DNA from: Calditrichia bacterium
GTDB taxonomy: Bacteria; Calditrichota; Calditrichia; RBG-13-44-9
Assembly (NCBI GenBank): GCA_037381445.1
Contig: JARRQT010000042.1
Coordinates: 1-16,018, forward strand
Direction: 5' to 3'
DNA length: 16,018 nucleotides
Under the pieces are notes generated by a model that saw only the letters and a list, made by a program, of their open reading frames with translations, made no database searches and was not told where the DNA came from. The position numbers and the translations under genes are program-made. Shown one piece after another: positions 1-16,018 of this stretch (position 1 is its first letter; each line of letters starts with the position of its first letter).

Positions 1-627
1 ATCCAGTGTAACCGTTGAAGGAGAGAGTGGTTTAAAACTGGTGAATTTCATGAAATCCGGATCATAATTCAAATGGGCGTCAAAAGGCCGGGGAGATTTT
101 AAAGCCAGTTTAAAGACAATTATCTTTCTATATTGCTTAACATCAATATATCCGTGAATATCTGATACGTCAATCGGAGTTGACTTGAGGGTACTGAAAT
201 TCTCTAATTCTTTGAGCCCAATGGTACCATACAATTCAGAGATGTCTATTTTATTTCCCTGAATAAAATCCCCCAGGAAAATTGAGGTCAGCAAAAAGCC
301 GATAACAATGCCAACCACAAACGCATAGGCCAGTTTCGGATTGGGACTTGTAAAAAAACGCCGCAGCCTGGAAAATGAAATTGAAAATTGCTTTTGGGAT
401 GGAATTTTTTTGAAATCAACTGAATTCATGATATGTTTTTTCAGGTTCGGAGAAGGTTCGAATTCGGGAATTTCGGAAAGTAAAATGGAGGCCCTTCTCA
501 GATCCTGGTAAAAGGATTGAGCGTCCGGATTGCTCTGCAAATATTTCCGAAGTCTTTGGCAGTCCTTTTCGGATAACTCGCCATCGATTTCCTGATGCAT
601 TAATTCTATATATCGATCTTCAATCAT
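1..627 (-). CDS. Membrane-anchored anti-sigma factor (RsiW/zf-HC2-like N-terminus); 3' end runs off the window
   Basis: Translated by hand: ATG at 627-625 overlaps the sigma stop by 8 nt and the frame is open for 209 codons to position 1. It starts MIEDRYIELMHQEIDGELSEKDCQRLRKYLQSNPDAQSFYQDL (DGEL anti-sigma motif), then EPSPNLKKHIM, then one hydrophobic segment LAYAFVVGIVIGFLLTSIFLG, then a predicted extracytoplasmic part. Confidence 0.85.
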   Translation of the reverse strand, partial: MIEDRYIELMHQEIDGELSEKDCQRLRKYLQSNPDAQSFYQDLRRASILLSEIPEFEPSPNLKKHIMNSVDFKKIPSQKQFSISFSRLRRFFTSPNPKLAYAFVVGIVIGFLLTSIFLGDFIQGNKIDISELYGTIGLKELENFSTLKSTPIDVSDIHGYIDVKQYRKIIVFKLALKSPRPFDAHLNYDPDFMKFTSFKPLSPSTVTLD

Positions 628-1168
628 GGGTTATTACACCTCGTTGGATTAATATCTCTCTCAGAATTTGTCTTGCAGAATAAAGCCGCGATTTCACCTT
701 TCTCACTGGTATATCAAGTATTTCCGAAATTTCATTATAGGAACAATGGGCAAAATGCCTGAGAATAATAATAATTCTGTAATTGGGTTGAAGCTGCATC
801 AGTGACCGCTGGATATTTTCGCTTAACTCAACCTGCAGATAAGTCTGCTCCGGATTCTGCTCTGAACACTGAATAATGGTATCAATATTTTTCCCATCTT
901 TCTTCTTTTTTAAAAAGTTTAATGATTCGTTCACCGCTATCCGGTAAAGCCAACTAAAAAATTTGTATTTTGCATTGAATGTTTTCAGCTTTTCATAGGC
1001 TTTAATAAATACTGTCTGCGTAATATCTTCAGCTTCGTCGAAATCTTTGCAAAATCGATACACCATATTGTAAATAATCTTCTGATATTTATCGACCAAT
1101 CCTTCAAAGGCCGTTTGGTTTCCCTCCAGACATTGCCTTACTAAAAAATGATCATCATTCTTCATCAT
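620..1168 (-). CDS. ECF-family RNA polymerase sigma-70 factor (SigW/RpoE-like)
   Basis: 182 aa. Region 2: EAEDITQTVFIKAY and FFSWLYRIAVNESLN. Region 4: SYNEISEILDIPVRKVKSRLYSAR. The start may be either of two tandem ATGs (1168 or 1165). Confidence 0.95.
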   Translation of the reverse strand: MMKNDDHFLVRQCLEGNQTAFEGLVDKYQKIIYNMVYRFCKDFDEAEDITQTVFIKAYEKLKTFNAKYKFFSWLYRIAVNESLNFLKKKKDGKNIDTIIQCSEQNPEQTYLQVELSENIQRSLMQLQPNYRIIIILRHFAHCSYNEISEILDIPVRKVKSRLYSARQILREILIQRGVITHD

Positions 1169-1213
1169 AATTACAACTTGTGAGCTAAAATGTTGGTTGT
1201 CTTTTTAATCCAA

Positions 1214-1498
1214 TTATAGAATTTGAAATATCATATCGAAACCGGCATATCTGAACACTTCCCGGATATGCTTATTCAAATTTTTTAAAATTAACTGATT
1301 TCCATTTTCGCTCAACCTTTTTTGCGTTACCAGCAGCACGCTTAATCCGGCACTGGAAATATAATCCAGATCCCGAAAATTGACGGTGCGTGTGGTGTTG
1401 ATTCCATCGAATGCCTCCCTGGCTTTGTCAACTTGAGATGCATCAAACCGCCCTTCCAGCGCGATTTCATTGTCCTCCCCATAACTAATTTCGAACAT
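1214..1498 (-). CDS. STAS-domain anti-sigma factor antagonist (RsbV/SpoIIAA-like)
   Basis: 94 aa. LDYISSAGLSVLL carries the phosphorylatable Ser motif, and the C-terminus has IREVFRYAGF. An AAGGA ribosome-binding site lies upstream and the gene overlaps the upstream gene by 14 nt. Confidence 0.93.
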   Translation of the reverse strand: MFEISYGEDNEIALEGRFDASQVDKAREAFDGINTTRTVNFRDLDYISSAGLSVLLVTQKRLSENGNQLILKNLNKHIREVFRYAGFDMIFQIL

Positions 1499-1904
1499 GA
1501 GTCTTCCTTAAAATTTTAGTCAATGTCAGTTTATTCATATTATTTTTATATTCGCAATTAATATCATCCATATATTTTTTGATCAAATGTATTCCCAGTT
1601 TCCCGGTCGGACGCTTGCTAAGCGGCACAGTTGCGTCATAATCAGCAGCCTGGGTCGGATCGAAGGGCTGCGAATTAAAATCCTTCACGGTCAGCACAAT
1701 CTCGTTTTTCCTTTTGCTCAATCCTATTTCGATATCGCCCATACAACCCGGGCAATATTTTAACATATTTGTAAAAAGTTCTTCCACCACCAGCTCAATT
1801 GCAAATCTGATTTCTTCGTTTAGTCCGTTCCGATGGACGAATGATTGAATGAAGGAGCACATCTGTTCAAGCGAACTGAAATCCCGTTGAAATTTCTTTT
1901 TCAT
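1485..1904 (-). CDS. RsbW/SpoIIAB-like anti-sigma Ser kinase (HATPase_c_2)
   Basis: 139 aa. N-box LVVEELFTNMLKY, a PFDP motif and G2-like RPTGKLGIHLIKKYMD. It lies between the PP2C and STAS genes. Confidence 0.9.
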   Translation of the reverse strand: MKKKFQRDFSSLEQMCSFIQSFVHRNGLNEEIRFAIELVVEELFTNMLKYCPGCMGDIEIGLSKRKNEIVLTVKDFNSQPFDPTQAADYDATVPLSKRPTGKLGIHLIKKYMDDINCEYKNNMNKLTLTKILRKTHVRN

Positions 1905-1941
1905 GATTTTAGAAAAAGCAAATAAATTATTAACAACATTT

Positions 1942-3237
1942 TTATTTGACCTTAACAGCGATCAATGCGATATCGTCCCGGGGAGACTCATCGTGAAGAT
2001 GCAATTTTAATTTTGTCATTAAATGCTGAATAATTCCCCCGGCTGAATCAGCAGCGCAAGTTCTGAATTCCCTTAAGAGCCGTTCCTGTCCGAACATCTC
2101 ATGATTTGAGTTTTCTGCTTCCGTGAAACCATCCGTATAAAGCACCACAGAATCATCTTGCCCGAGTTCAATTCTCCTGATTTCATATGCCGGATTTTTC
2201 AGCCCGTTTAAAGCACACCCGGTTATTTCCAAAGTGCCTGCCGATTTTGAGCTGGAATCAAAGAATAATGCAGGATTATGGCCGGCATTGGACAGTGTTA
2301 ATGTCTTTTTTAAAGGATTAATCACCATGATCAGCATCGTTATGAATATTTCCGGGGGGAGAATCTTATTCAAAATTTGATTTAATTCCTGAAGGACCTG
2401 GTCCACTGAAACAAATTTATAAACGAGTGAATGTAAAATACCCTTAATCATGGTCATGATCATCGCGGCCGATGCGCCATGACCGGCAACATCAGCGAGG
2501 ACAATGCCAATTTCACCATCTCTTAAAGAAAAATAGTCGTAATAATCACCTCCCACTTCTTCAGCAGGACCAAAATAACTTGAAATTTCCAGAAAAGCAG
2601 ACCCGGGATCAATCTTAGGAATCAAATCCTGTTGCATCTTTCTGGCCAGTGCCAATTCATGAGCCAGCCGCTGTTTCTCAATCAATTGCTTCTGCAACTG
2701 CAAATTTTGAATTAATTGCCCCGATTGCGCTGCAATAATGGATAGCAATCTTAAATCTCCCTTTGTAAAAGGCTCTAATGTTTTTTTATTGGTAACTGTC
2801 AATATCCCGATCATTTGTCCCTTAAATTGAATAGGAACGCTTAGAATCGAACGGATCTCTTTTGTCTCCTGATCGTTGGGACTGAAACGCTCATCTGTTG
2901 CCAGATTTTCAACTATAAGCGGTGCTCTATATTTCAGCACCCATCCGGTAAGATGAATGCCAACCTTATAGGTCAATAAACGACTTCGCTGATCTGCCTG
3001 ACGGATCAGGGTTTGGAGCGGATTTTTTTCCTGCAGAGTAATTAATTGTATGGCACCCTGTTCTGCTCTTACGGCTTTGATAGATTTCTCCACGATAATG
3101 TCTAACATTCTTTCTACTTCAAGGGATGAACTTGCTGCCATGGCAAGCTCATTCAGCACCGTGAGCTCTTCCACCGCGGAGCGAAGCCTCGCCACCTCAT
3201 GTTCCAGTTGTTTTAAATCGTTATTTTGAGTTATCAT
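1942..3237 (-). CDS. GAF-domain PP2C-type Ser phosphatase (RsbU/SpoIIE family)
   Basis: N-terminal coiled coil, GAF domain (RSILSVPIQFKGQMIGILTVTNK...FTKGDLRLL), linker ELALARKMQQDLIP, and PP2C motifs VGGDYYD, ADVAGHG, NAGHNP, LYTDGFTEA, RDDIAL. The start is uncertain: ATG at 3237 is preferred over the ORF-track TTG at 3279. Confidence 0.93.
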   Translation of the reverse strand: MITQNNDLKQLEHEVARLRSAVEELTVLNELAMAASSSLEVERMLDIIVEKSIKAVRAEQGAIQLITLQEKNPLQTLIRQADQRSRLLTYKVGIHLTGWVLKYRAPLIVENLATDERFSPNDQETKEIRSILSVPIQFKGQMIGILTVTNKKTLEPFTKGDLRLLSIIAAQSGQLIQNLQLQKQLIEKQRLAHELALARKMQQDLIPKIDPGSAFLEISSYFGPAEEVGGDYYDYFSLRDGEIGIVLADVAGHGASAAMIMTMIKGILHSLVYKFVSVDQVLQELNQILNKILPPEIFITMLIMVINPLKKTLTLSNAGHNPALFFDSSSKSAGTLEITGCALNGLKNPAYEIRRIELGQDDSVVLYTDGFTEAENSNHEMFGQERLLREFRTCAADSAGGIIQHLMTKLKLHLHDESPRDDIALIAVKVK

Positions 3238-3852
3238 AATAGAATATTTGAAAAACGATTCAAATAACAGATAAACCAAAACTGTATAATCTTTTGATTT
3301 AAAAAATATAATGAACTTAAAAAGCGTCTATCACATGCTATATGAGGCTCTCGGAGAACAAATAGAAAAATGACAAAAAAATTCGAAATTGGGCGGAAAG
3401 GGAATTTGGGATAATGGATTGACCATCACAGAGTATCATTTCAGCAGATCGTAAGGAGAATTACGCCAGCAATTTTTTAACTCCTATTTTTTTATAGAAT
3501 AGCCGACTTCCTCAGTGATAATTCTTTTAAATAAATTCCATTAATAAATTAAGCATAATATCTTTTAAATTCAAACAAGATATGGGATATATATCATTTT
3601 CATATTTTGGAGAATATCAGTGATTGAATATGACTTCATTTCCCTGTAAGATAGTTCAACCGACATCCTGGTATATAATAGATATCCGGATTCGGATTTT
3701 CCGATAACATAAAAAATTTAAAAGAGCAGAGCAGAAAGTGAAAAATTGTAATGAAGATGATTCAATTAAGGCAAAAGTGGATTTGAAGGATATAAATTCC
3801 AAAAGTTCTTATCAATATCGCTGCAATATCTGATGCTTGCCCCACAATCACA

Positions 3853-3881
3853 TTGATTTTTAAATCAAAATTTTGTATTAT
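3853..3881 (+). promoter_or_regulatory. Candidate sigma70-type promoter with an overlapping inverted repeat
   Basis: TTGATT (3853-3858), 17-nt spacer, TATTAT (3876-3881). The inverted repeat TTGATTT-tt-AAATCAA spans 3853-3868. The AT-rich context makes a chance match possible. Confidence 0.4.
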
Positions 3882-4070
3882 CTATAGTAAATATTTAATA
3901 ATTCTATTAAATATTTACATGCTCAAAAACATTTTCAATAATCCAGCTCGAATCAAATCAGTATGTGATCTTTCTTCGCCGACAACCGCACTGATGTTGC
4001 AGCATTACGGGTCAATCTAATATAAGATTTATGTTGGCTCCCGATCAGTTTTGAGACAGGTGGTGCTAAT

Positions 4071-4211
4071 ATGAATTCTTTGCCCTGCGTCAACAGAAAG
4101 GTCGCCGATTATCGCCCGCCTTCAATTGGATATTCTTGTTCATTTATCTCACAAATTCTATTACAGCGCTTTATAGTATTTAGTGCAATATTGAGTCTGT
4201 GTTCTATTTAA
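4071..4211 (+). CDS. Candidate small ORF (46 aa) with a hydrophobic C-terminal half
   Basis: AGGTGG at 4058-4063 lies 7 nt before ATG 4071. Translation: MNSLPCVNRKVADYRPPSIGYSCSFISQILLQRFIVFSAILSLCSI*. No homology recognised. Confidence 0.25.
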   Translation: MNSLPCVNRKVADYRPPSIGYSCSFISQILLQRFIVFSAILSLCSI

Positions 4212-4249
4212 ATAAATGATCTTTATATCATCAAGTAGGGGGACTTAAT

Positions 4250-4765
4250 ATGGATAAGACAACTTATCTTTTACGGAGCCTTTTTCTCTGTATTATCCTT
4301 AGTTTATTGTACTCAATATGTATTTTCGCGCAAAACCAGCCCAGTGCCCTGGAAAAACTGGCGCTGGAAGCCGAAATGATTGTAACAGGGAAGGTGACAC
4401 AATTAGAATCCAATTGGAATGAAAAGCAAACGCGAATCTATACTACGATTACAATTAATGCAGATCAATTTCTGAAAGGAGAACAGTCTGATCATACGAT
4501 TACCATCAAGGAACCGGGAGGTGAAGTTGGAGAAACAGGAGAACTATATACACATGTGCCAAAATTCAGCATGAACGAAGAAGTACTGCTATTTGTGAAA
4601 AAAGACAAAAGCAATAATCTGCGTGTTGCGGGGGGAGCAAAAGGAAAATTGTCAATCATAACGGATAAAAACACCGGTTCGAAAACAATCAATGGGCGGC
4701 AGAGCTACAACATCCTATTAAAGAAAATCAGCAAAATACTGGATAAGGAAGAACTGAAAAAATAA
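4250..4765 (+). CDS. Secreted protein with a TIMP/NTR-like OB-fold domain of the type associated with bacterial matrixin-family proteases
   Basis: AGGGGGA ribosome-binding site and an N-terminal signal peptide (probable cleavage after ...SICIFA). Pattern AEMIVTGKVTQLESNW...IYTTITINADQFLKG...ITIKEPGGEVG...PKFSMNEEVLLFV. The fold call comes from motif recognition only. Confidence 0.7.
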   Translation: MDKTTYLLRSLFLCIILSLLYSICIFAQNQPSALEKLALEAEMIVTGKVTQLESNWNEKQTRIYTTITINADQFLKGEQSDHTITIKEPGGEVGETGELYTHVPKFSMNEEVLLFVKKDKSNNLRVAGGAKGKLSIITDKNTGSKTINGRQSYNILLKKISKILDKEELKK

Positions 4766-4825
4766 TGATTTATAAGATACCTGAAATTTATTTGTCCGGA
4801 ATATAATCCAAAAAAGAGGGAGATC

Positions 4826-7800
4826 ATGAAAAATATAAGAAACAAACCCATCCTTTTTTTGAGAATTATTATTCTCCTTTTATTTAGTTTAGTTCTGTTT
4901 ACAGATTTCCTGCCTGCACAGGAACGACCCGAAATCACATTACTTCCCGGTTATTCTGCAGAATATTTTTACCGTAATGTGCCCAGACCTGATGGCATCG
5001 CGGTCCGGACAGATGATACTCTATTGATTGTGAATGAAATTGACCCCACGGGAGTTTTTGTGGCGTCCAGAGGTGATCAATTCAACATTAACGGTCGCTA
5101 TTGCGAGACCGGCCCCCCATTTAACAGTCCGGATGATATATTGCAGTATCATGGAGACAGCGTTTTCGTAGTTGATGGCCAGGCCCAAACTTTATTTCTC
5201 GTTTTCCCGGGCGGTAGTCCCATACCTTTCGTTACATCGGAAGATATTACAATTGAAAATCAGTTTAATCCGTTCGGTATTGCACTGGCTCCATCGTCAT
5301 TTGATGGTGACAGTGTGGATCCTGGTGATCTAATTATCGCGGATATTGCATTCGGCTGGCCAGATGAAAAAGCAATATGGGCCATCAATCCTGTAACAGG
5401 TGATGAAAAAGTTTTGGCGAGAGGAAATATTTTTGAACATGGGCCATATCAGGTAGCCTTTAGTCCGGACGGCATCCTTTATATGATTGAAAGCGATGCA
5501 AGTGGAACTGAAGATACGAGGATTGTCACCATAGATGCAGATGGGACTGTTACCCCATTTCTGACCGGAATTCCGAGTACTGGTAATTTAGCAGTACATC
5601 CGGTTACCGGAGAGGTATTCTTCGGAGTCTATGAATTGGGGGAAATCCGGCGTATTTCACCCAGTCATGGCAATTTATTATATCCGAGCACCTCAGAAGT
5701 ATTTGCTTCAGGATTTGAAGAATTTCAGGATTTCCAATTCAGCCCCGATGGAGAAGTATTATATGTGAGTGCTTTTTTCCCAAGCTCCAATGATATTATT
5801 GCGATAAGGAAAACACACACATTTATGGTCACTACATACAATGATGATGGAGCAGGTTCATTAAGAGCCGTCATTGATAGTGCAAATGCAAAGCCCGGCC
5901 TTGACAGCATACACTTCAACATTCCCGGAACGGGCCCGCATACAATTCAACTATCTTCGCAACTACCGCAGATTACCGATCCCGTCACCATCGATGGCTA
6001 CACACAATCCGGAGCATCCCCGGCCACTTCTACAACGAATGCCGTTCTAATGGTTGAAATAGATGGTCAATACACAGATGTTTGTCTTGATATCACTTCC
6101 GGGGAGAGCACCATCAGGGGATTGACAATTAATCGATGTTCGGCTGCCGGAATATCGCTGTATATAGGAGGCGGCAATATTATCGAGGGCAATTTCCTGG
6201 GCACGAATATCAGCGGAACCGCAGGGCTGGGTAACTATCGGGGTATTCTTATAATTGCGTCATCCGGCAATACAATCGGAGGCACAACGCCCGAATCCCG
6301 CAATATTATTTCCGGAAATAGTTACCGCGGGATAAGCCTTGGGGAGGGGACGGGAAATGTAATAACGGGCAATTATATTGGAACGAATGCCGCCGGCACA
6401 GAGCCTGTACCAAATGGCAACATCGGTTTGCTTATCCTCTCCGCGGATAGCACGGTTGTTGGCGAGGCAGATAGTGGTGCCAGAAATGTCATCTCCGGTA
6501 ATGATGGAAATGGCATAATAATTTCAAATTCCACCAATAGTAGAATTATCGGAAACTTCATTGGCACCGATCCCTCAGGAACAATCCAAATTGCCAATCA
6601 AATCGGTATCACTATCAGCGCTGCTTCTGATAATATAATTGGCGGATCTTCACCAGAGACTCGCAATGTTATCTCAGGAAACAGTGATGATGGAATAAAT
6701 ATTCTTGGGAGCACCAGTGAAAATAATGGGATTACAGGCAACTTCATCGGTGTCGCCGCAGACGGATCCACCGCATTGGGAAATGGGGATAATGGCATTT
6801 ATATTGAATCGCCCAATAACATAATTGGCGGACCAGCGGATTTTATGAATGTCATCTCCGGGAATGCAAGTTACGGTATTGTCATTGCAGGTACGGATGC
6901 AGCAGGCAACCGGATCGCAGGAAATTATATTGGGACAGATGCCTCCGGGACTACCGATTTAGGCAACAGCCAGGGTGGAATCTACATCGGAAATGGCGCA
7001 TCAGACAACATCATTGGCGGAACAACTCCTGAGGCACGTAACATAATTTCCGCAAATGGAGAAAATCCTCCGCCTGTCCAACCGGGACCGGTTCATGGAA
7101 TTGTAATGGATGGAGTCGGTTCTAATGGCAATATCATAAGCGGAAACTACATCGGAACAGATGTAACAGGGGAAGTGGCGCTTGGCAACGGCGGCGATGG
7201 CATTCATGTTAGAAACGGTGCTTCGGACAATACAGTAGAAGGCAATGTCATCTCAGGGAATGAAACGACGGCGATATCAATTTTCGGGGACGGAACCGAG
7301 AATAATTTTGTGTGCAGAAATCTAATTGGATTAGATGCTGCCGGAACAGCGAATATAGGACAGCCTGCAGGCACGGGTGTTTATATTGGAATGTCAGCCA
7401 GCAACAATCATATTGGCGGTGCCAGTCCCGATTCGGGCAATTTTATCACGGGCTCAGGTTGGGCTGGTTTTTATACGGATAGTTCAGGTGCAACAAATAA
7501 TAAAATAATCAGCAATTGCTTTGGAACTGATATAAATAAACAAATTGACCCTACTTATGCGAATAGAATAGGAATTCTCCTCTGCAATGCTTCAGGATAT
7601 GCAATCGGCGGTGCTTCGGAGGGCGAAGGTAACCTTATTGCAAACTGCCTGAATGAGGGAATACTTTTGCAGGATACCAGTTCCTATAATCTGATTGCAG
7701 GCAATGAGATCATTAATAACGGCACCTCCGGTATCAATGTAACAAACGGCACCGGGAATAATATAGCGGCGAACCGCATATCTGCAAACGGGGGACTGGG

Positions 7801-10723
7801 TATAGACCTGGGCGGAGATGGTGTTACGCTCAACGATGAGGTGGACCTCGACAGCGGGCCAAACAACCTGCAAAACTATCCTGTGCTGACTTCTGCTGCC
7901 AGCGATGTGGATCTTATCAGCGTTGAACTGCACAGCACTCCGGGCATCGAATATCGCATCGAATTTTTTGAAAGCGATACCTGCGATACCTCGGGATATG
8001 GTGAAGGACAGACATTTATCGGCAATATTACGGTGGCGACAGATATTTATGGCGACGTAACGTTTAATGCGTACCTGCCGGATGAAATTAAACCCGGTAA
8101 ATTTTATACCGCAACGGCAACCGCCCCGGATAACAATACTTCCGAATTTTCTGCTGCGATAGCATCTGAAATCAAGACAAAATCCTACGGGCCCCATTAT
8201 GTGATCAACCGGACCCACTCCGGTATCCCGTTGCATTGGCCGGATGGGAAGGCGACGTTTGATATAGGTCCCGATGCACAAGCATTTGCAACATCAGTCG
8301 AGGCGGGTTATGCCACATGGAGCGCTTTGCCGGAACTGGAATATATTGCTTCAGGCAATGCGGCATCATCCAACCAGTGGGCCGGTGATCCGGATGGGCT
8401 CAATAATAATGTCTGGATAGCAGATTGGGATACCACCGGATTGGCACCGGACGTGGTAGCAGCCACCCGGGTGCGTTATAACGCCATTACCGGAGAAATG
8501 ACCGATGTGGATATCGGCTACAATGCCCAAGACTTTAATTGGTCCACTTCAGGAGAGGCTGATAAATTAGATGTCCAAAACGTAGCTACCCACGAAATTG
8601 GACATTTTGGGGGCTTAGGAGATATTTATAACGAGGCCGATACTGACTATTGGGTGGAAGGTATGGGAGATGGGAATGCAGAACAAACCATGTATGGTTT
8701 GATAAAAGCGGAAGAAACCAAAAAACGAGATCTGTATCAGTATTCCGGTTCGTCCCCGGAGGGCGATGTTGGCGGAATTGAATATATCTATGCCAATATT
8801 CCCGATGAACGAGTAGATCTAATGCTGGTATTCGACGGATCGATGAATTATGCGGACAATTATCACGCCTTTGAGGCTGCTAAAAAAAGCGCCATTCAGT
8901 TGATTGACAAGATGCGGGAAGGAGACAGGATTGGTATAGTAAAATTGCCGGATACCCTGTTGGCGCCGCTCACGCAAATTGTGGATGAAAACAGTAGAAC
9001 AGATATCAAAGATAAGATATCCGCCATGAATGTGGGCGGACGGGCTGCTATCGGTTCGGGTTTACAAACCGCTCAGAACCAGCTTGTCACGGAAGGCAGT
9101 GCTCAGAATAAGTGGGCCATGATTTTGTTCAGTTCAGGTGAGGAAACCGCAGAACCTTATGCGGAGTCCGTTCTTCCGGACATTATCGGCACCAAGACTG
9201 CAATTTATACCATGGGCTTTGCAAATGGACCAGCTTCGGGACAAAATTTGAACAGTCATATCGCTGATGTTACCCGGGGTGACTATTTCCTTCTGGCGGA
9301 CTCCAGTGAGATTGGGGATGTCGTTAATTTTATCTGGTATCGCCTGCTGGGTATGCAAATTATTTATTTATCCGAAGCCCACTCCACCAGTGACTTGGCT
9401 GGTGTTTCGTCCCCGGGACTATATTGGCAGGGCGGGATGTACTGGCAAGGAGGATTTTACTGGCAGGGCGGCATGTATTGGCAGGGTGGTTTCCTGGAAA
9501 TAGGGCTATACTGGCAGGGCAGCGATTTGGATCTCTCCATTTTACCACCGCCAGCGGATGGTGAAACAGATCGGCTTATTGATTCAACTAATGTGGATGA
9601 TTATCCCAATATCAAGTTTTTTACCGGACCAAATTATGAATACTACCAGATTAAAAATGCCGATCCCGGAACCTGGTCCGGTTGGGTATTCGGTGAAAGT
9701 CTTCCGCAAATCCCCGAGACATACCGAACGTACATCGCTGCCAGGACTGATGTGACCATGGAAGTGAAGATACCTTCTGACCGGTTACCATCGGGCGCCC
9801 ACACCGAAATCGATGTTAAACTATATGAAGGCGGAGAACGCCAGTCCGATTTGCACCTGACCGGTGGCCAGCCTATTTTAGGAGCAATTGTTTCTGCCGA
9901 CATCGTAAATCCTGATGGAGATACTACTTTCACCGAACCATTTTATGAATCGGGTGACGGTTTATATACATTTGCCACCCGGCCATTTCCGGAGTCCGGA
10001 AGTTACAAGATAATAATTAATGCCAGTAAGCCCGAACCTTCCTCTGGCCAGCGAAAACTTATCAGCCGCAGCGTGCATTCATTGTACATTTATGATCTCC
10101 CCTCCTCAGATGCGGTAAATGAGATAAGAAATGTCATTTTCGGTCTCGATAATTCGTATTTCAAGCAACCAGCAAGCAACCGAAAAATTGCTTTTTCAAA
10201 CAAATTAGATGAAGTGTTATTCCTGATTGAGGACGGAAATTATGATGAGGCGATTGACAAATTAGAGAACGATGTCCTTGCAAAAATGGATGCTTTCTAT
10301 GGCGGAAGTCCAGGTAATGACTGGATCATTACCGAACCGGGGCAGCATGCGATATACCCACTTGTTCGTAATTTAATTGTTTCGCTGCAAACTCTGCCAC
10401 CCAAAAAATCTGAAACTCCGGCATTAAGGGGTGAATTGTCACCAAAGCAATTTAAGGTATTGCCCAATTTCCCGAATCCTTTTAATCTGCAAACCACAAT
10501 CCAATACGAATTGCCCCGGGAAAGCCAGGTTACTTTAAAGATTTATAATGTGCTTGGGCAATTGGTCAAAACACTGGTGGATGATTATCAGAAATCCGGT
10601 TATTATACGCTGCGCTGGAATGGTGATGATGAAAGTGGCACCGTAGTTTCAAATGGTGTCTATATCTATCGGTTTAAAGCCGGTAACTACATTAAAACAG
10701 GCAAGATGCTGTTGATGAAATAA
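4826..10723 (+). CDS. Large secreted multidomain zinc metalloprotease (propeller, beta-helix, matrixin-like, vWA, repeats, Ig-like, FlgD-Ig/T9SS-type CTD)
   Basis: 1965 aa with a GAGGGAG ribosome-binding site and signal peptide. Beta-propeller-like repeats at about 4930-5810. CSLREA-like cap NDDGAGSLRAVI from about 5820. Beta-helix at about 6100-7850. HEIGHFGGLGD at 8591-8623 and Met-turn QTMYG near 8690. vWA at about 8810-9350. C-terminus NFPNPFNLQTTIQYEL...GVYIYRF...KMLLMK. Confidence 0.9.
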   Translation: MKNIRNKPILFLRIIILLLFSLVLFTDFLPAQERPEITLLPGYSAEYFYRNVPRPDGIAVRTDDTLLIVNEIDPTGVFVASRGDQFNINGRYCETGPPFNSPDDILQYHGDSVFVVDGQAQTLFLVFPGGSPIPFVTSEDITIENQFNPFGIALAPSSFDGDSVDPGDLIIADIAFGWPDEKAIWAINPVTGDEKVLARGNIFEHGPYQVAFSPDGILYMIESDASGTEDTRIVTIDADGTVTPFLTGIPSTGNLAVHPVTGEVFFGVYELGEIRRISPSHGNLLYPSTSEVFASGFEEFQDFQFSPDGEVLYVSAFFPSSNDIIAIRKTHTFMVTTYNDDGAGSLRAVIDSANAKPGLDSIHFNIPGTGPHTIQLSSQLPQITDPVTIDGYTQSGASPATSTTNAVLMVEIDGQYTDVCLDITSGESTIRGLTINRCSAAGISLYIGGGNIIEGNFLGTNISGTAGLGNYRGILIIASSGNTIGGTTPESRNIISGNSYRGISLGEGTGNVITGNYIGTNAAGTEPVPNGNIGLLILSADSTVVGEADSGARNVISGNDGNGIIISNSTNSRIIGNFIGTDPSGTIQIANQIGITISAASDNIIGGSSPETRNVISGNSDDGINILGSTSENNGITGNFIGVAADGSTALGNGDNGIYIESPNNIIGGPADFMNVISGNASYGIVIAGTDAAGNRIAGNYIGTDASGTTDLGNSQGGIYIGNGASDNIIGGTTPEARNIISANGENPPPVQPGPVHGIVMDGVGSNGNIISGNYIGTDVTGEVALGNGGDGIHVRNGASDNTVEGNVISGNETTAISIFGDGTENNFVCRNLIGLDAAGTANIGQPAGTGVYIGMSASNNHIGGASPDSGNFITGSGWAGFYTDSSGATNNKIISNCFGTDINKQIDPTYANRIGILLCNASGYAIGGASEGEGNLIANCLNEGILLQDTSSYNLIAGNEIINNGTSGINVTNGTGNNIAANRISANGGLGIDLGGDGVTLNDEVDLDSGPNNLQNYPVLTSAASDVDLISVELHSTPGIEYRIEFFESDTCDTSGYGEGQTFIGNITVATDIYGDVTFNAYLPDEIKPGKFYTATATAPDNNTSEFSAAIASEIKTKSYGPHYVINRTHSGIPLHWPDGKATFDIGPDAQAFATSVEAGYATWSALPELEYIASGNAASSNQWAGDPDGLNNNVWIADWDTTGLAPDVVAATRVRYNAITGEMTDVDIGYNAQDFNWSTSGEADKLDVQNVATHEIGHFGGLGDIYNEADTDYWVEGMGDGNAEQTMYGLIKAEETKKRDLYQYSGSSPEGDVGGIEYIYANIPDERVDLMLVFDGSMNYADNYHAFEAAKKSAIQLIDKMREGDRIGIVKLPDTLLAPLTQIVDENSRTDIKDKISAMNVGGRAAIGSGLQTAQNQLVTEGSAQNKWAMILFSSGEETAEPYAESVLPDIIGTKTAIYTMGFANGPASGQNLNSHIADVTRGDYFLLADSSEIGDVVNFIWYRLLGMQIIYLSEAHSTSDLAGVSSPGLYWQGGMYWQGGFYWQGGMYWQGGFLEIGLYWQGSDLDLSILPPPADGETDRLIDSTNVDDYPNIKFFTGPNYEYYQIKNADPGTWSGWVFGESLPQIPETYRTYIAARTDVTMEVKIPSDRLPSGAHTEIDVKLYEGGERQSDLHLTGGQPILGAIVSADIVNPDGDTTFTEPFYESGDGLYTFATRPFPESGSYKIIINASKPEPSSGQRKLISRSVHSLYIYDLPSSDAVNEIRNVIFGLDNSYFKQPASNRKIAFSNKLDEVLFLIEDGNYDEAIDKLENDVLAKMDAFYGGSPGNDWIITEPGQHAIYPLVRNLIVSLQTLPPKKSETPALRGELSPKQFKVLPNFPNPFNLQTTIQYELPRESQVTLKIYNVLGQLVKTLVDDYQKSGYYTLRWNGDDESGTVVSNGVYIYRFKAGNYIKTGKMLLMK
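6170..7540 (+). repeat. Parallel beta-helix protein repeats, about 8 degenerate copies
   Basis: Recurring N-x-IGG...RNVISGN...GI-x-I...GN[FY]IGTD motif: GNFLGTN, GNYIGTN, GNFIGTD, GNFIGVA, GNYIGTD twice, RNLIGLD, SNCFGTD. Confidence 0.85.
9416..9520 (+). repeat. In-frame 18-bp tandem repeat encoding G-[LMF]-Y-W-Q-G (four tandem copies plus one)
   Basis: ggactatattggcagggc / gggatgtactggcaagga / ggattttactggcagggc / ggcatgtattggcagggt / ggtttcctggaaata / gggctatactggcagggc, which reads GLYWQG GMYWQG GFYWQG GMYWQG GFLEI GLYWQG. Confidence 0.95.
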
Positions 10724-10751
10724 TGAAATAAGAAGTTGCAGGTGAAATCCC

Positions 10752-10795
10752 GGGCAGGCCGTCAACTCTGTAGAGTGAAGGCCTGCCTTTACTTA
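10752..10795 (+). terminator. GC-rich stem-loop after the protease gene; possible weak intrinsic terminator or RNA stabiliser
   Basis: GGGCAGGCC (10752-10760) pairs with GGCCTGCCT (10780-10788), with an inner ACTCT-gt-AGAGT. Only a short, interrupted T tract follows. Confidence 0.55.
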
Positions 10796-10820
10796 TCATG
10801 AATGGAAATTTGGTTGCGAT

Positions 10821-13800
10821 ATGATAAATCATCCCGAAAAAATTGCGCATTATCAGATTCTGGAATTATTAGGTGAAGGAGGAATGGGGTCGGTCTTTAA
10901 AGCCATCGATACCCAGCGCAACGAAACTGTCGCAATTAAAATTTTATCACGTCACTCCCTGCAAAGTGAAGAAATCCGTCGCCGTTTCCGGCGGGAAGCC
11001 AGCGCCGGCATGCGTCTGGATCATCCTAATATTGTAAAAATCCTGGAAGTCGGGGAATCGGAAAACGAGCTCTTTATCTGCATGGAATATGTGGCTGGGA
11101 AGACCCTCCGAGAAATCGTACAGGAAAAAACGCCTGATCTGATGAAAACCATCGATATTGGGATTGCTGCTGCAAATGCATTAAAACATGCCCATGATCA
11201 GGGAATTATTCATCGGGATATCAAGAGCGCGAATATTATGCTTGCTCATGATGCATCGGTGAAAATAATGGATTTTGGTTTGGCCCGTATGCAGGATGCT
11301 AGTATGCTGACCAGGGAAGGGGAAATTATCGGAACAATTGCCTATATGTCTCCTCAGCAAGCTGTAGGGGAAGCCATCGATCATCGCAGTGATATATTTT
11401 CGCTGGGCGTAGTGCTTTATGAATTACTTACCGGACAGTTGCCGTTTTCCGGCGATTACGAAATGGCATTAATCTATTCCATTTTGAATGAAGAGCCCAT
11501 TAGCATTCGTGAAGTTAACAAAAGCGTGCCCCAGGCATTAGAGCAAATAATATTTAAAGCACTAAAGAAAGATCCTCAAAAACGATATCAAAGTGCAAAT
11601 GATCTGGCTGCCGATCTTGTAAAAATAAAAGACCATTTGGAAATCAATGAACTAATTGATGAATCCGACCTTGATTTGTTGGCCAAAACAGAGGTTTTGC
11701 GTCCTGAAGAGAGGGCTTTTGATTCAAGATTAATTGGCAGAGGGGAACAGCTTGAAGCATTGAAGTCTATACTCCGCCAGGTGATGCTTGGTGAGGGACA
11801 CTCTGTTTTCATTACGGGAGAGGCCGGCATCGGAAAAACCCGATTAGCCTGGGAACTGGAAAAACATGCCCGGACCTTAAAAGTACGAACAATAAAATGC
11901 AGATGCATGTTTCGTCAAGGCGTCTATCCGTATCAGCCTTTTGTAGAAGCCATTCGAGACTATTTTGACATTAAAGGGGTCAAAAGTAACGAAAAGTTAC
12001 ATGACTTTATATCGAATCAAGCCGAAGGATTATTAACCGCACTCCCTGTTATTCGAAAATTCTTAAATCTCGACCAGGAACAGAAAATCATTGTCGAGAG
12101 CAAAGAACAATACTGGGATGCAATTTATAAATTGATTTTGAATATTGCGCAGGAAAGGCCACTTATTCTGATTATCGATGATCTGCACTGGGCCGATGAA
12201 GATACTTTAAAGTTATTCTTTTATATTGCCCGCAACAGTCGTTCCGCCAGGATCATGATGATAGGCACTTACCGTCCGGAGGATGTGCTGGAAATATTTG
12301 ATGACAAAACACCTACCCTCATTGAAATGCAGCATGAAATGAGTCGGGAAGGATTTCTGTCTCTTATCGAGCTAAAAAGGATCAGTGATTCTGAAGTTCG
12401 TGAGCTGGCGGATTCACTTTTTGAAAATGCGGATTTTGATTACTCATTTTACCTGATATTGAATCGGGAAACGGAGGGAAATCCATTTTTTGTTATCGAA
12501 TTATTAAAAATGTTAAATTCAGAAGGCATTATTCTTAAAAAGGGACAAGAACATGTTTTAAAAGAAAATTTTCAACAATTTCAGATTCCCGGCAAGGTCC
12601 AGGATATTGTGATGAGGCGTGTTGAACGGTTGAATAAGGAGGAACGAGAAATTCTTGAGATTGCAGCGGTGGAGGGAGAAGTTTTTCATTCCGACACCAT
12701 CGCTGCCTGTCTGACACTTAATCGCGTTAAAGTTATGAAATTTCTGCAGGCCCTGGAAAGAGAGCATCATATCATACATCCACATGAAAAAATGTATAGA
12801 TTTGATCATGGCAAAATCAGGGATATCTTATATGATTCGATCACACCCGAACTATGCTCGGAATATCATCTGCTTATTGGGAATTTTCTGGAATCAGAGT
12901 ATGGTGCCGATATTCGAATGATTCCCAACATCGCGCATCATTTTGTAGAAGCGGGAGAAAATAAGAGGGCATTACCGCATTTAATTCGTGCTGGTGAACA
13001 GGCAAGAAGTGTTTTTGCCAATGAACATGCAATTCGGTTTTTTGAAAAGGCAGAGGCCATTTTAAATGATTTAGTGAATGAACTCGAAAATGAGGAAATC
13101 CGCCAAAAAAGAGAGGCAATTTATGAAGGCCTGGGCGATGTGCTTGCCCTTACCGGTAAACATGATCTAGCCAATGCTTATTATCATCAGGTAAATTCCT
13201 TGCTGCAGGCTAATTCTCCCAAACAAGCTGTTCTGCTTTGGAAAATGGGATCAGTCCATATTCATCAAGGCGAGAACGAAAAGACACTCCAATTTCTGAA
13301 TCAAGCCGAAACAATCTGTCAGAAAAGTCTTGAGCGACTCAAGCTGGGAATTCCTCTGGAAGCATTTTCTGATGCGAATATCACCGAACAGGATCTATTC
13401 ACTTTGCTGGGCAAGATAATGACCTCCCGGGCACGAATCTTAAAAATTTCCGGTAAGTATAGGGAAGCGATAGAAGAAATAGAAAAGGGGCTTCAGTTTC
13501 TCTCCGATAAAGGGAATCTTACCGAGAAAAGCCAGGCCTACAATGACTTTGGTAATATTTTATTCGATCAGGGAAATTATGAAAACGCAGCCGAAATGTA
13601 CTCCAAAAGTATGGAAATGCGTGAAAAGATAGCCGATAAAAAGGGGCTCGCCGAGACCCGGAATAATCTGGCATTAATTTTTATTGAAAAGGGGCAATAT
13701 GAAAAAGCCGCAGAACTCCTGGAAGAATCCATCGAGCAAATGAATCAAATCGGATTTCGGGTTGGTATTGCAGGCACTTATAATAATTTGGGAGCAGTTT

Positions 13801-14429
13801 ATCAGGATTTAGGTCGTCTGGAGAACGCCTATAAAGTTCATCAAAAAAGTCTGAAAATTTGTGAAGCAACTCATGACATTCCGGGAGAAATCTTATCCTA
13901 TGCAAATATTGGATCAGTAAATGTCGAATTAGGAAACGGTCAAACGGCGGTAAAAAGTCTGGAAAAAAGCATCGCTTTAATGGATGCGAGAAAAATCATG
14001 GTCCTCAAACCCCAGGCTCTTTATTGGTTAAGCAGGGCTTTTTTATCCTTAGGTAATATTCAGTCCGCTCAGGATACTGCTGAAAAAGCGCATCAGGAAG
14101 CATTGAGATTAAATCAAAGGGTCAGTCAAGGCTTTACCAACAGAATATTGGGTATGATTGGATTGGAAAGGTTGACCCAAATGCTACACAAGACCGATCT
14201 TTCAAATTTCAAAGAGGAAATTCATAAATATTTTTCGGAGAGTTTGGAGATTTTTGAATCCCTAAAGATGGAGCATGAATTCGCCCGGACTTGCCTTGAA
14301 ATCGCTAAATTCTTTAAATGGACCAAAGAAAGTAATCAATATGATAGATATTTTCACATTGCCAAAGAAATATTTGAAAGGCTTGGAGCCACCCATGATC
14401 TCAAAAAAATTGAGGAAATTAATTCATAA
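10821..14429 (+). CDS. Hanks-type Ser/Thr kinase fused to a STAND (AAA_16-like) NTPase and TPR repeats
   Basis: Kinase motifs LGEGGMGSVFKA, VAIKIL, HRDIKSAN, DFGLAR, DIFSLG. STAND motifs LIGR, Walker A GEAGIGKT (11817-11840), Walker B LILIIDDLHWAD, and TEGNPFF (GxP). C-terminal TPRs such as YNNLGAVYQDLG. No transmembrane segment or signal peptide is evident. Confidence 0.95.
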   Translation: MINHPEKIAHYQILELLGEGGMGSVFKAIDTQRNETVAIKILSRHSLQSEEIRRRFRREASAGMRLDHPNIVKILEVGESENELFICMEYVAGKTLREIVQEKTPDLMKTIDIGIAAANALKHAHDQGIIHRDIKSANIMLAHDASVKIMDFGLARMQDASMLTREGEIIGTIAYMSPQQAVGEAIDHRSDIFSLGVVLYELLTGQLPFSGDYEMALIYSILNEEPISIREVNKSVPQALEQIIFKALKKDPQKRYQSANDLAADLVKIKDHLEINELIDESDLDLLAKTEVLRPEERAFDSRLIGRGEQLEALKSILRQVMLGEGHSVFITGEAGIGKTRLAWELEKHARTLKVRTIKCRCMFRQGVYPYQPFVEAIRDYFDIKGVKSNEKLHDFISNQAEGLLTALPVIRKFLNLDQEQKIIVESKEQYWDAIYKLILNIAQERPLILIIDDLHWADEDTLKLFFYIARNSRSARIMMIGTYRPEDVLEIFDDKTPTLIEMQHEMSREGFLSLIELKRISDSEVRELADSLFENADFDYSFYLILNRETEGNPFFVIELLKMLNSEGIILKKGQEHVLKENFQQFQIPGKVQDIVMRRVERLNKEEREILEIAAVEGEVFHSDTIAACLTLNRVKVMKFLQALEREHHIIHPHEKMYRFDHGKIRDILYDSITPELCSEYHLLIGNFLESEYGADIRMIPNIAHHFVEAGENKRALPHLIRAGEQARSVFANEHAIRFFEKAEAILNDLVNELENEEIRQKREAIYEGLGDVLALTGKHDLANAYYHQVNSLLQANSPKQAVLLWKMGSVHIHQGENEKTLQFLNQAETICQKSLERLKLGIPLEAFSDANITEQDLFTLLGKIMTSRARILKISGKYREAIEEIEKGLQFLSDKGNLTEKSQAYNDFGNILFDQGNYENAAEMYSKSMEMREKIADKKGLAETRNNLALIFIEKGQYEKAAELLEESIEQMNQIGFRVGIAGTYNNLGAVYQDLGRLENAYKVHQKSLKICEATHDIPGEILSYANIGSVNVELGNGQTAVKSLEKSIALMDARKIMVLKPQALYWLSRAFLSLGNIQSAQDTAEKAHQEALRLNQRVSQGFTNRILGMIGLERLTQMLHKTDLSNFKEEIHKYFSESLEIFESLKMEHEFARTCLEIAKFFKWTKESNQYDRYFHIAKEIFERLGATHDLKKIEEINS

Positions 14430-14446
14430 AACATATTGGAAATACA

Positions 14447-16018
14447 ATGGAAAAAATTGAACAGTATCGGGCAGTTATGCCGGAGGAAAAGTTTTGGCTC
14501 GATAACGTTTATCAGGGTGACACACTCTCCGAACTAACGTATAAGGTCTTCGCAGTCGGTACCGTTCTCAGTCTGCTGCTCATTTCGTCAAATATCTATA
14601 TGGGACTAAAAACAGGTATTACAATGGGGGGATCGCTTATCGGCGCTTTGCTCGCTTTCGTTATGGTTAAGGCATTCAGGGGCAGTTTTTCTATTCTGGA
14701 GAATAATAATGCGCAGACCATGGCGTCGGCATCAGCCAGTCTTGGAATTATGGTCAGCACGATTCCCGCGCTTATCATGTTGGGTTATGAATTCTCGCGG
14801 TTCGAATTATTTATCTGGATTCTTTTCATCCATATCATGGGCGTATTGTTTACCATTCCTCTTAGGATGCAATTTGTAGTGATCGAAAAATTAACATTTC
14901 CCAGTGGAACAGCTTGTGCAGAAACCATTAGAGCAATGCACGCACACGTGGAAGATGCCGTGAAAAAAGCCAGGGTTCTTGGAATAACCGGTTTAATATC
15001 AGGGATCATTACCTGGTTTAGAGATGGTATTCCGGCAATTATTCCAATGATTTCAGGATTTCCCGGCAAAATATGGGGATATTCATTAGCAAGGTTAACA
15101 CTGGGAGTAAATTGGAGTCCAATGTTATTTGGGGTTGGATTTTTAGTAGGACCAAGAATTGGCACCAGTCTGCTTTTGGGAGCTATAATTGGATGGGGAA
15201 TTTTAGCTCCGTTTCTTGCCAATGCCCACATTATTGAGGGGATTGCCTATCCGCAGGTCCGAAATTGGACCATGTGGTCTGCCATTGCATTGATGGTTAC
15301 ATCTGCTATTCTGTCATTAATACTTAAGGCAGGTACGATTTTTAGAGCTTTCAGATCAATGAAGAGGAGCAAACTCGGTGATCTTAGGAAGATTGATATC
15401 AGTTTTAATATGTGGCTGGTCCTATTCTTGCTCACAGCTTCGATCATCGCTATCGTAATGCAGCTGCAATTCCACATTCCTGTTTGGTTAACAGTTTTGG
15501 CAATAATTTTTGCCTACATGTTTTCAATCGTTGCCGTGAGGACTTATGGTGAAACCGATATCAATCCGGTTGGAGCAATGGGATATGGAACTCAAATTAT
15601 TTATGGAGGACTTGCGCCTGGGAATATGATGACCAATGTAATGGCGGCAGGCATTACCGCATCCGGCGCAAATCAATCTGCAGATATGATGCAGGATTAT
15701 AAAACCGGTTATCTGCTCGGTGCCACACCAAAAAAACAAACCATCGCCCAACTGGCAGGTGTTTTCATCGGTTCTATCGCCGCGGTCCCCATTTTTTATG
15801 CAGTAATTGGTGCCTATGGATTAGCCAGCGACGTGTTGCCAGCACCAAGTGCCGTGACATGGGTAGGTATGGCAGAGTTCCTTTCTTCCGGATTTTCCGC
15901 GCTGCCGTCATACGCAGAATTAGGAATCTTATGCGGTATTCTACTGGGCATCATTTTGACAACGATGGAGAATTCAAAATATGCAAAAATTACACCTTCC
16001 CCTTTTGGGATTGGCATT
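14447..16018 (+). CDS. OPT/YSL-family oligopeptide transporter; 3' end runs off the window
   Basis: Translated by hand: ATG 14447, 17 nt after the kinase stop, open for 524 codons to the window end. Motifs ELTYK...SNIYMGLKTG, ILENNNAQTMASA, IPLRMQFVVIEKLTFPSGTACAE, GETDINP, ADMMQDYKTGYLLGATPKKQ, LPAPSA, plus many hydrophobic helices. Confidence 0.93.
   Translation, partial: MEKIEQYRAVMPEEKFWLDNVYQGDTLSELTYKVFAVGTVLSLLLISSNIYMGLKTGITMGGSLIGALLAFVMVKAFRGSFSILENNNAQTMASASASLGIMVSTIPALIMLGYEFSRFELFIWILFIHIMGVLFTIPLRMQFVVIEKLTFPSGTACAETIRAMHAHVEDAVKKARVLGITGLISGIITWFRDGIPAIIPMISGFPGKIWGYSLARLTLGVNWSPMLFGVGFLVGPRIGTSLLLGAIIGWGILAPFLANAHIIEGIAYPQVRNWTMWSAIALMVTSAILSLILKAGTIFRAFRSMKRSKLGDLRKIDISFNMWLVLFLLTASIIAIVMQLQFHIPVWLTVLAIIFAYMFSIVAVRTYGETDINPVGAMGYGTQIIYGGLAPGNMMTNVMAAGITASGANQSADMMQDYKTGYLLGATPKKQTIAQLAGVFIGSIAAVPIFYAVIGAYGLASDVLPAPSAVTWVGMAEFLSSGFSALPSYAELGILCGILLGIILTTMENSKYAKITPSPFGIGI

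Follow-up and report, generated by a model that had tools for sequence, protein, structure and literature searches.

A tandem WQG hexapeptide in a secreted metzincin of Calditrichota is a candidate multi-copy peptide signal with two candidate reader systems

Signalling by processed peptides is textbook biology in Gram-positive bacteria and is rare in Gram-negative bacteria. The precursors of yeast alpha-factor and of neuropeptides carry tandem copies of the same peptide, written in divergent codons and released by proteolysis; they differ from the case described here in being eukaryotic, in having dibasic sites and G-protein-coupled receptor (GPCR) readers, and in having no protease in the same chain. 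In protease-activated and adhesion GPCRs, the ligand is a tethered or cryptic agonist: cleavage uncovers a strand or creates a new N-terminus, which then acts as the ligand. Here we analyzed a 16,018-nucleotide stretch of a Calditrichia bacterium (assembly GCA_037381445.1, contig JARRQT010000042.1, positions 1-16,018; hereafter the window), in which a secreted metalloprotease of 1965 residues carries an array of G-[LMF]-YWQG hexapeptides and is followed by the genes of a kinase-STAND-TPR protein and an OPT-family transporter. Among described bacterial systems, the RRNPP systems (Rap-Phr, PlcR-PapR, and Rgg-SHP) are the closest to the window: a peptide of 5-6 residues is exported, processed, re-imported, and bound by a TPR protein that anchors it through Asn, as PMC3601992 describes, including for Phr peptides. 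The other relevant systems are the Bacteroides hybrid two-component sensors (BT4663 and BT4673), which have a Reg_prop and Y_Y_Y ectodomain, and CLCA1, a metallohydrolase-VWA-BSR-inhibitory domain protein that cleaves itself (10.1101/2025.10.18.683246).

We favor, by a small margin over doubt, the reading that the repeat is a multi-copy peptide signal derived from a beta-strand, which the metzincin of the same protein probably cuts out and which acts on a partner-switching cascade. The data support selection on the peptide, its origin beside the strand, a loop without a predicted fold, two exclusive reader sets, dedication of the receptor, and co-variation with the W and Q of the peptide. The window resembles the RRNPP systems in combining an importer with a TPR region lined with Asn (N908, N949, N989, and N1029 in the aligned sequence). 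It differs in that the candidate peptide lies in many copies inside the open reading frame (ORF) of a 1965-residue protease rather than in a small dedicated pro-peptide gene, the importer is an OPT protein and not an Opp ABC transporter, the output is a kinase with AAA_16 (kinase-STAND) and not Rap or a helix-turn-helix protein, the hosts are Gram-negative, and most loci have a surface receptor instead. That receptor is like the hybrid two-component sensors in its ectodomain (profile matches to 4A2L, E 4e-166, and to 3V9F); its output is a SpoIIE phosphatase with STAS and an anti-sigma kinase, not a histidine kinase or receiver/AraC, and its proposed ligand is a peptide where theirs is a disaccharide. 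The apparent domain order and the logic of self-cleavage are shared with CLCA1, a likeness that rests on the VWA match and the predicted strand order; the window protease is matrixin-like with Asp as third ligand, and its repeat lies in the first beta-domain. The self-cleaved loop of about 48 residues between the last strands of the fourth domain of CLCA1 is absent, and 6 and 12 residues stand there in our two models if the strands are equivalent. Compared with the tethered agonists of GPCRs, the strand here has been copied to give a loop, and another gene encodes the reader. The module resembles RRNPP systems in its window arm and a multi-copy pheromone precursor overall, and by their defining features it is not an RRNPP system, a hybrid two-component system, a CLCA protein, or a ribosomally synthesized and post-translationally modified peptide (RiPP). 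No description of such a module was found in a literature search whose coverage left out most subscription journals; the feature is real, and the conserved module appears to be undescribed and directly testable.

The array and its surroundings in the window are as follows.

9416-9487, + strand: four tandem G-[LMF]-YWQG units (aa 1531-1554) in a predicted unstructured loop, proposed multi-copy peptide signal.
9488-9535, + strand: GFLEI spacer and fifth copy GLYWQG running into SDLDL, in strands of the beta-domain after the VWA domain (aa 1555-1563 and 1567-1573), likely source of the repeat.
9383-9415, + strand: linker STSDLAGVSSP preceding the array (aa 1520-1530), which differs among homologues by sequence comparison.

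The units read GLYWQG, GMYWQG, GFYWQG, and GMYWQG in order, and the fifth copy, GLYWQG, occupies aa 1560-1565 (nt 9503-9520). A sequence-only reading of the window had reported five tandem copies at residues 1531-1565 joined by Gly-Gly; its coordinates and residue numbers are right, but only the first four copies are tandem and joined in this way, whereas the fifth follows GFLEI. A pattern search in six frames found no other (G-x-aromatic-W-x-G)n array in the 5.1 Mb genome, and the array is therefore not a product of chance. An amyloid-signaling link to the adjacent STAND protein was considered and ruled out, as the array pattern is absent elsewhere in the genome.

The same reading held that the repeat is conserved in the protein and not in the DNA and that the peptide is under selection, and both claims agree with our counts. 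Synonymous codon identity among the five copies was 0.39, against 0.41 expected from the codon use of the gene itself (41 codon pairs). Comparison with the orthologue of genome G084 (80% identical) showed all 30 repeat residues to be the same and 11 of the 23 degenerate codons to be different, while outside the repeat 479 of the 598 residues of the region were identical. The AlphaFold model of aa 1130-1760 (predicted template modeling score 0.87) was confident except for aa 1531-1550, where the predicted local distance difference test (pLDDT) was below 50, so the check on order or disorder that the reading had proposed gave no confident fold; the nine-unit array of a homologue with ten copies had a pLDDT of 22-35 in a second model. 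The model places aa 1555-1563 and 1567-1573 in strands and the last copy thus within a strand, in line with the earlier suggestion that WQGSDLDL is structural. In proteins that share the VWA and beta-domain but lack a protease of this family, the FxxxWxGSDLDL strand is single and unduplicated. These results indicate that the motif was most likely copied from the structural strand, as had also been proposed.

To describe the family, we drew loci from 86 genomes of the same phylum, from genome contigs (best 80 of 156), and from metagenomes (best 80 of 161). Of 182 matching frames, 36 partial ones were left out, and merging of identical sequences and clustering at 95% gave 128 and then 121 rows. 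The named records come from Calditrichota, Ignavibacteriota, Bacteroidota, and Chlorobiota. The repeat region parsed as 2-11 copies of G-hydrophobic-x-WQG in 120 of the 121 rows, with every copy number in that range represented and exactly ten copies in 54, and the remaining row has WKG throughout. The W, Q, and G of the unit are nearly fixed over the four phyla, and every parsed unit has Gly or Ala ahead of the hydrophobic residue, which is true by construction of the pattern. The linkers that follow WQG vary freely in several lineages (0-5 residues), as expected if the units are released. In 77 of 120 regions, the last copy has the same pair of variable residues as the majority of the array (shuffle mean 10.7, with kinship not controlled); by copy number, the match was 8/8 for two copies, 32/42 for 3-7 copies, and 33/66 for 8-11 copies, leaving out four rows with an unparsed last copy. 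Synonymous identity over the whole family was 0.48 between units and 0.43 between array and last copy, against 0.39 by chance in both comparisons, and in two-copy proteins it was at chance (0.35 against 0.35, 40 codons). This small excess between units indicates that slippage or gene conversion supplied the copies.

Several members vary from the common form. L062 and L065, which were dropped as partial, have a different, Pro-containing 7-mer, PGFVSGQ, at the array site; in L062 (5652-11453), L065, and P0028, nine PGFVSGQ/PGIITGQ 7-mers wholly replace the repeat, and the structural strand no longer matches. Units of eight residues, in about ten copies each, are found in P0005 (aa 640-725, GGxSLRWE) and P0026 (aa 2935-3025, ETGLRWQG). 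The fixed residues change in both copies together in P0063 compared with P0043 (WQG to WFG) and in P0025 (WQG to WQA), and the P0063 sequence is possibly faulty. Close kin among L087, L158, L172, and L161 differ in copy number (3 against 9; 6 against 10), which may be recent contraction or assembly collapse. The protease gene of L219 (9093-12680; G363:C23) breaks off within the last copy and continues as part of a phosphatase, either by a deletion through the receptor or by mis-assembly.

Downstream of the protease, the window carries the following two genes.

10821-14429, + strand: soluble Ser/Thr kinase-STAND ATPase-TPR protein without a membrane helix, proposed cytoplasmic peptide reader (six orthologues aligned).
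14447-16018, + strand: OPT-family transporter of 591 aa that extends past the window end, proposed peptide importer (PF03169, E 2e-81).

In 77 loci with at least 3.5 kb downstream, a propeller receptor followed the protease in 72, OPT plus kinase-STAND-TPR in 4, both in none, and neither in 1. The receptor is a membrane protein with Reg_prop and Y_Y_Y regions; complete examples are fused to SpoIIE, and an anti-sigma kinase, a STAS protein, and a second phosphatase usually follow. The tie of the array to OPT and TPR-kinase neighbors, which the sequence-only reading had assumed, thus fails for most arrays, and a dedicated propeller receptor takes their place there. Further OPT-type loci beyond the four are the window, G084, and L216. 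In OPT-type loci, the orthologues share 42-53% identity with the kinase of the window and 48-70% with its OPT protein; Asn908, 949, 989, and 1029 of the kinase-STAND-TPR protein, spaced by 40 residues, are invariant in all six aligned orthologues, and among the 86 genomes an orthologous STAND-TPR protein was found only in G000 and G084. The reader type switched at least four times on a 46-row tree, and a single clade of OPT-type loci was rejected (p-AU 6e-6) for a group that was named after the first tree and includes L109, whose reader type is unassigned. G087 has two paralogues, one for each reader type. Two paralogous modules were seen in several genomes or contigs (L115/L124 on contig Ga0315284_10000884; L052/L056; G041; and G087). 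L216 (3562-11634; G101:C91) is a short 875-aa version with neither beta-helix region nor repeat that is nevertheless accompanied by kinase-STAND-TPR and OPT; it may have a single-copy aromatic peptide or be an early form.

The family receptor was found in 6 genomes of a set of 86 and in 11 of a set of 301, and all 17 carry the protease. In this survey 9 and 2 candidates, respectively, were scored per genome, and split copies in G041 and G045 fell below the threshold. The receptor was not found in G000 (92% complete), where the best score was 1126 against 1262-1915 for members, nor in G088 or G089.

We then compared the receptor with the peptide at 29 conserved ligand-face positions, defined from the blade pattern. 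Against a consensus built each time without close kin, the deviation was 0.207 in the FVSGQP lineage, 0.207 in the WKG lineage, and 0.121 in the W[L/E]G lineage, whereas normal lineages average 0.04-0.06 with a maximum of 0.20. The summed deviation of these three W/Q-changed lineages was unmatched by any triple among 30 or 49 normal lineages, while their Y_Y_Y, membrane, and phosphatase part was average (40-62% of triples). The changes, in a pattern noticed after the fact, cluster at Y182/S183, W227, and D417-Y421 (L148 numbering), with the sets S183Y and R419E; S183Q, W227E, and R419E/G with the Lys peptide; and Y182F, W227N, and Y421F. These results modestly suggest that the ligand face co-varies with the normally fixed W and Q of the peptide. 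With the gene neighborhood, they make a multi-copy signal cassette the best supported of the three functions proposed for the repeat from the sequence. Signals specific to a strain and keyed on the x residue were dropped after a co-change scan gave nothing clear; no receptor position tracks the variable residue, which leaves strain-specific signals unsupported, and mixed arrays such as that of the window imply that this residue is tolerated.

Several results weigh against a peptide signal of this kind. The 29 positions depend on a propeller blade geometry that we take to apply here; the co-variation test has only three lineages, the rest of the propeller shows a mild rise as well (0.7-0.8% of triples), and single loci ranked 1, 1, 8, 7, and 17 against 72 before L198 was added. 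Among about 1400 variable columns in 75 loci, no receptor, protease, or partner column clearly co-changes with either variable residue of the unit, the hydrophobic one or x (best z 2.5). L216 has OPT and the kinase with a single NWDWEEEY stretch instead of repeats, L064 has an array but neither the partner nor the receptor, and the closed genome G082 has an array although no receptor was found there. In the models, the last copy forms a strand of the core, as perhaps both copies do in two-copy proteins, so that release would require unfolding; a buried strand that matches the loop copies would need unfolding after the first cuts or, alternatively, gene conversion. The characterized Reg_prop sensors bind sugars, namely disaccharides, at entry faces, according to PMC5121618. 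Bacterial OPTs group with iron-siderophore carriers and were uncharacterized as of 2011 (PMC3061005); in favor of the signal, the same paper states that context often leads to their prediction as peptide transporters.

The same peptide and readers could operate with the array as a reporter substrate for foreign or housekeeping proteases, as an alarm for proteolytic attack or failed export, while the metzincin does other work. Neither the neighborhood nor the receptor evidence sees who the cutter is, a Gly-rich unfolded loop is a generic substrate, and the W[L/E]G lineage (L098/L102) changed its peptide with no matching change in the protease (1 of 59 conserved positions). Against it, the duplicated motif is confined to proteins that carry this protease family, in which the zinc motif never varies, and the FVSGQP lineage, with its wholly new peptide, also changed conserved protease positions (7-8 of 58, rank 2 against 72); we regard an alarm as unlikely. 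About as unlikely, and slightly more doubtful to us, is a loop acting in cis as bait or product inhibitor of the protease, with a receptor that senses sugar or another fragment. The precedent is CLCA1, with apparently the same domain order, in which the new N-terminus of the cleaved loop stays in the active site (10.1101/2025.10.18.683246); the known propeller sensors bind disaccharides (PMC5121618), and relatives of the window protein carry carbohydrate-binding and beta-helix domains. Such a loop leaves unexplained the replacement of the receptor by a peptide-family importer with a TPR protein, the ligand-face residues that move with the peptide, and the upkeep of ten copies in 54 of 120 regions.

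In-register stacking into a beta-solenoid or amyloid-like element, with Trp and Gln ladders, would itself select identical residues. Nine-unit arrays are very common, and in 53 of them (e.g., L094, L142, and L005) the deviant unit is at position 3 in 19, at 9 in 9, and at 6 in 5; some arrays alternate with a period of two, and 723 of 787 units agree with the majority of their own array. The two AlphaFold runs gave no fold and lend no support to this proposal of the sequence-only reading, although the program handles such repeats poorly; copy number takes every value from 2 to 11, linkers range from 0 to 5 residues, and an entirely different 7-mer with Pro can stand at this site. We consider stacking improbable. 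Hardly credible is neutral expansion by slippage in a tolerant loop, homogenized by gene conversion: it would account for the small synonymous excess noted above, and it is opposed by largely randomized codons that encode identical residues, by the full identity of the repeat in orthologues that are 80% identical elsewhere, and by W, Q, and G nearly fixed over four phyla.

The protease that carries the repeat has the following features.

4826-10723, + strand: secreted protein of 1965 aa with signal peptide, beta-helix region, metzincin, VWA, repeat, two beta-domains, and a C-terminal domain of the type IX secretion system (Pfam NosD, Beta_helix, and FlgD_ig; TIGR04183).
8591-8623, + strand: HEIGHFGGLGD zinc motif (HEXXHXXGXXD) at aa 1256-1266, with a Met-turn-like QTMYG after it (alignment of homologues).
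8804-9355, + strand: VWA domain, about aa 1327-1510 (VIA-align to 4FX5: Z 24.2, root-mean-square deviation 2.1, 192 aligned).

The signal peptide was read from the sequence, and the TIGR04183 match scored 35.5 bits (cut-off 23). The H, E, H, G, and D of the zinc motif are invariant in all 121 rows, in agreement with the metzincin consensus HEXXHXXGXX(H/D); its Glu is E1257, as had been numbered before, and the Met of QTMYG is at least 90% conserved, as judged from the alignment. The window protein has no Pfam M10 (Matrixin) match, PF00413 is listed for 2 of 21 homologues, and MMP-1 and MMP-8 matched at E of about 1e-3 only. Fold searches were dominated by VWA, the sole CLCA match being the VWA of CLCA1 (6PYO, Z 19.5), and an Atlas search with the repeat domain (aa 1500-1660) gave nothing beyond leads scoring <0.9. 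The metal-site motif of the VWA domain (8804-8850) is DGSMN instead of DxSxS and may be degenerate. The region ahead of the protease ranges from about 40 to more than 2500 residues across homologues, with differing domains, and would thus suit a swappable sensor. Distant relatives in G003, G051, G052, and G053 (L012-L015; 26-27% identity, about 950-1000 aa) match the VWA region, and no WQG cluster was seen in them.

Upstream, the window holds a partner gene and a divergent operon.

4250-4765, + strand: secreted TIMP/NTR-like protein of 171 aa, likely a split-off pro-domain or inhibitor of the protease (upstream homologues; Atlas).
1-3279, - strand: divergent operon, likely output arm (domain matches).
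1942-3279, - strand: GAF-SpoIIE phosphatase of this operon.
1485-1904, - strand: anti-sigma kinase of this operon.
1214-1498, - strand: STAS protein of this operon.
620-1168, - strand: ECF sigma factor of this operon.
1-627, - strand: zf-HC2 anti-sigma factor of this operon.

Of 89 loci with sufficient flanking sequence, 88 encode a homologue of the partner upstream. Its product resembles the N-terminal domains of bacterial matrixin proteins (Atlas TM 0.84-0.89) and, as a weak lead, had a feature score of 0.89 to a cluster that is 19% TIMP. The fold also occurs as an N-terminal domain fused to matrixins in Acidobacteria, and the stand-alone gene likely represents a split pro-domain family without a Pfam or NCBIfam model. 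A SpoIIE domain was found in 61 of 63 homologous loci having both flanks; GAF-SpoIIE lies upstream in L030 and L033 and not in L028, L046, or L216. Neighbor clusters in more than 8 of 112 loci comprised only the partner, receptor/phosphatase, STAS, anti-sigma kinase, and antisense frames, and no conserved modifying enzyme of the RiPP type was among them. The phosphatase operon and the partner gene are separated by a divergent intergenic region of 970 bp (3280-4249), which is AT-rich (GC about 0.29). When the regions preceding the partner gene (67 of 80 after dereplication) were searched for a common promoter motif, only clade-limited words emerged.

We infer cleavage, control by the partner, binding to either reader, and the partner-switch output as the steps of the following scheme. 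After type IX export, the TIMP-like partner would hold the metzincin inactive until a cue reaches the variable N-terminal region or the VWA domain. Metzincins prefer to cut before a hydrophobic residue, as is known from MMPs. A cut at this place in the units would give peptides that start hydrophobic-x-W-Q-G, and up to about ten per molecule would act as an amplifier. In most genomes, the peptides would bind the periplasmic Reg_prop propeller fused to the SpoIIE phosphatase; in the genome of the window, OPT would import them and the Asn-lined TPR region of the kinase-STAND protein would bind them. Both routes would end in a STAS/anti-sigma partner switch. In its fullest form, to which belief and doubt seem to us equally due, the proposal is that a type IX-exported metalloprotease serves as its own pheromone precursor in Calditrichota, Ignavibacteria, and related Bacteroidota, its strand having been co-opted as a cryptic agonist that was multiplied in a loop to as many as ten copies, is self-released on cue, and is read either by a propeller phosphatase or by OPT and an NLR-like TPR kinase.

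The module names a ligand sequence, a candidate releasing enzyme, and two candidate readers, and is therefore testable even though its hosts are mostly uncultured. It would make testable what bacterial OPTs carry, these being uncharacterized as of 2011 (PMC3061005), and whether Reg_prop sensors read ligands other than sugars. If the proposal is true, Reg_prop propellers would gain a ligand that is a peptide, and a bacterial OPT would have a defined substrate in signaling.

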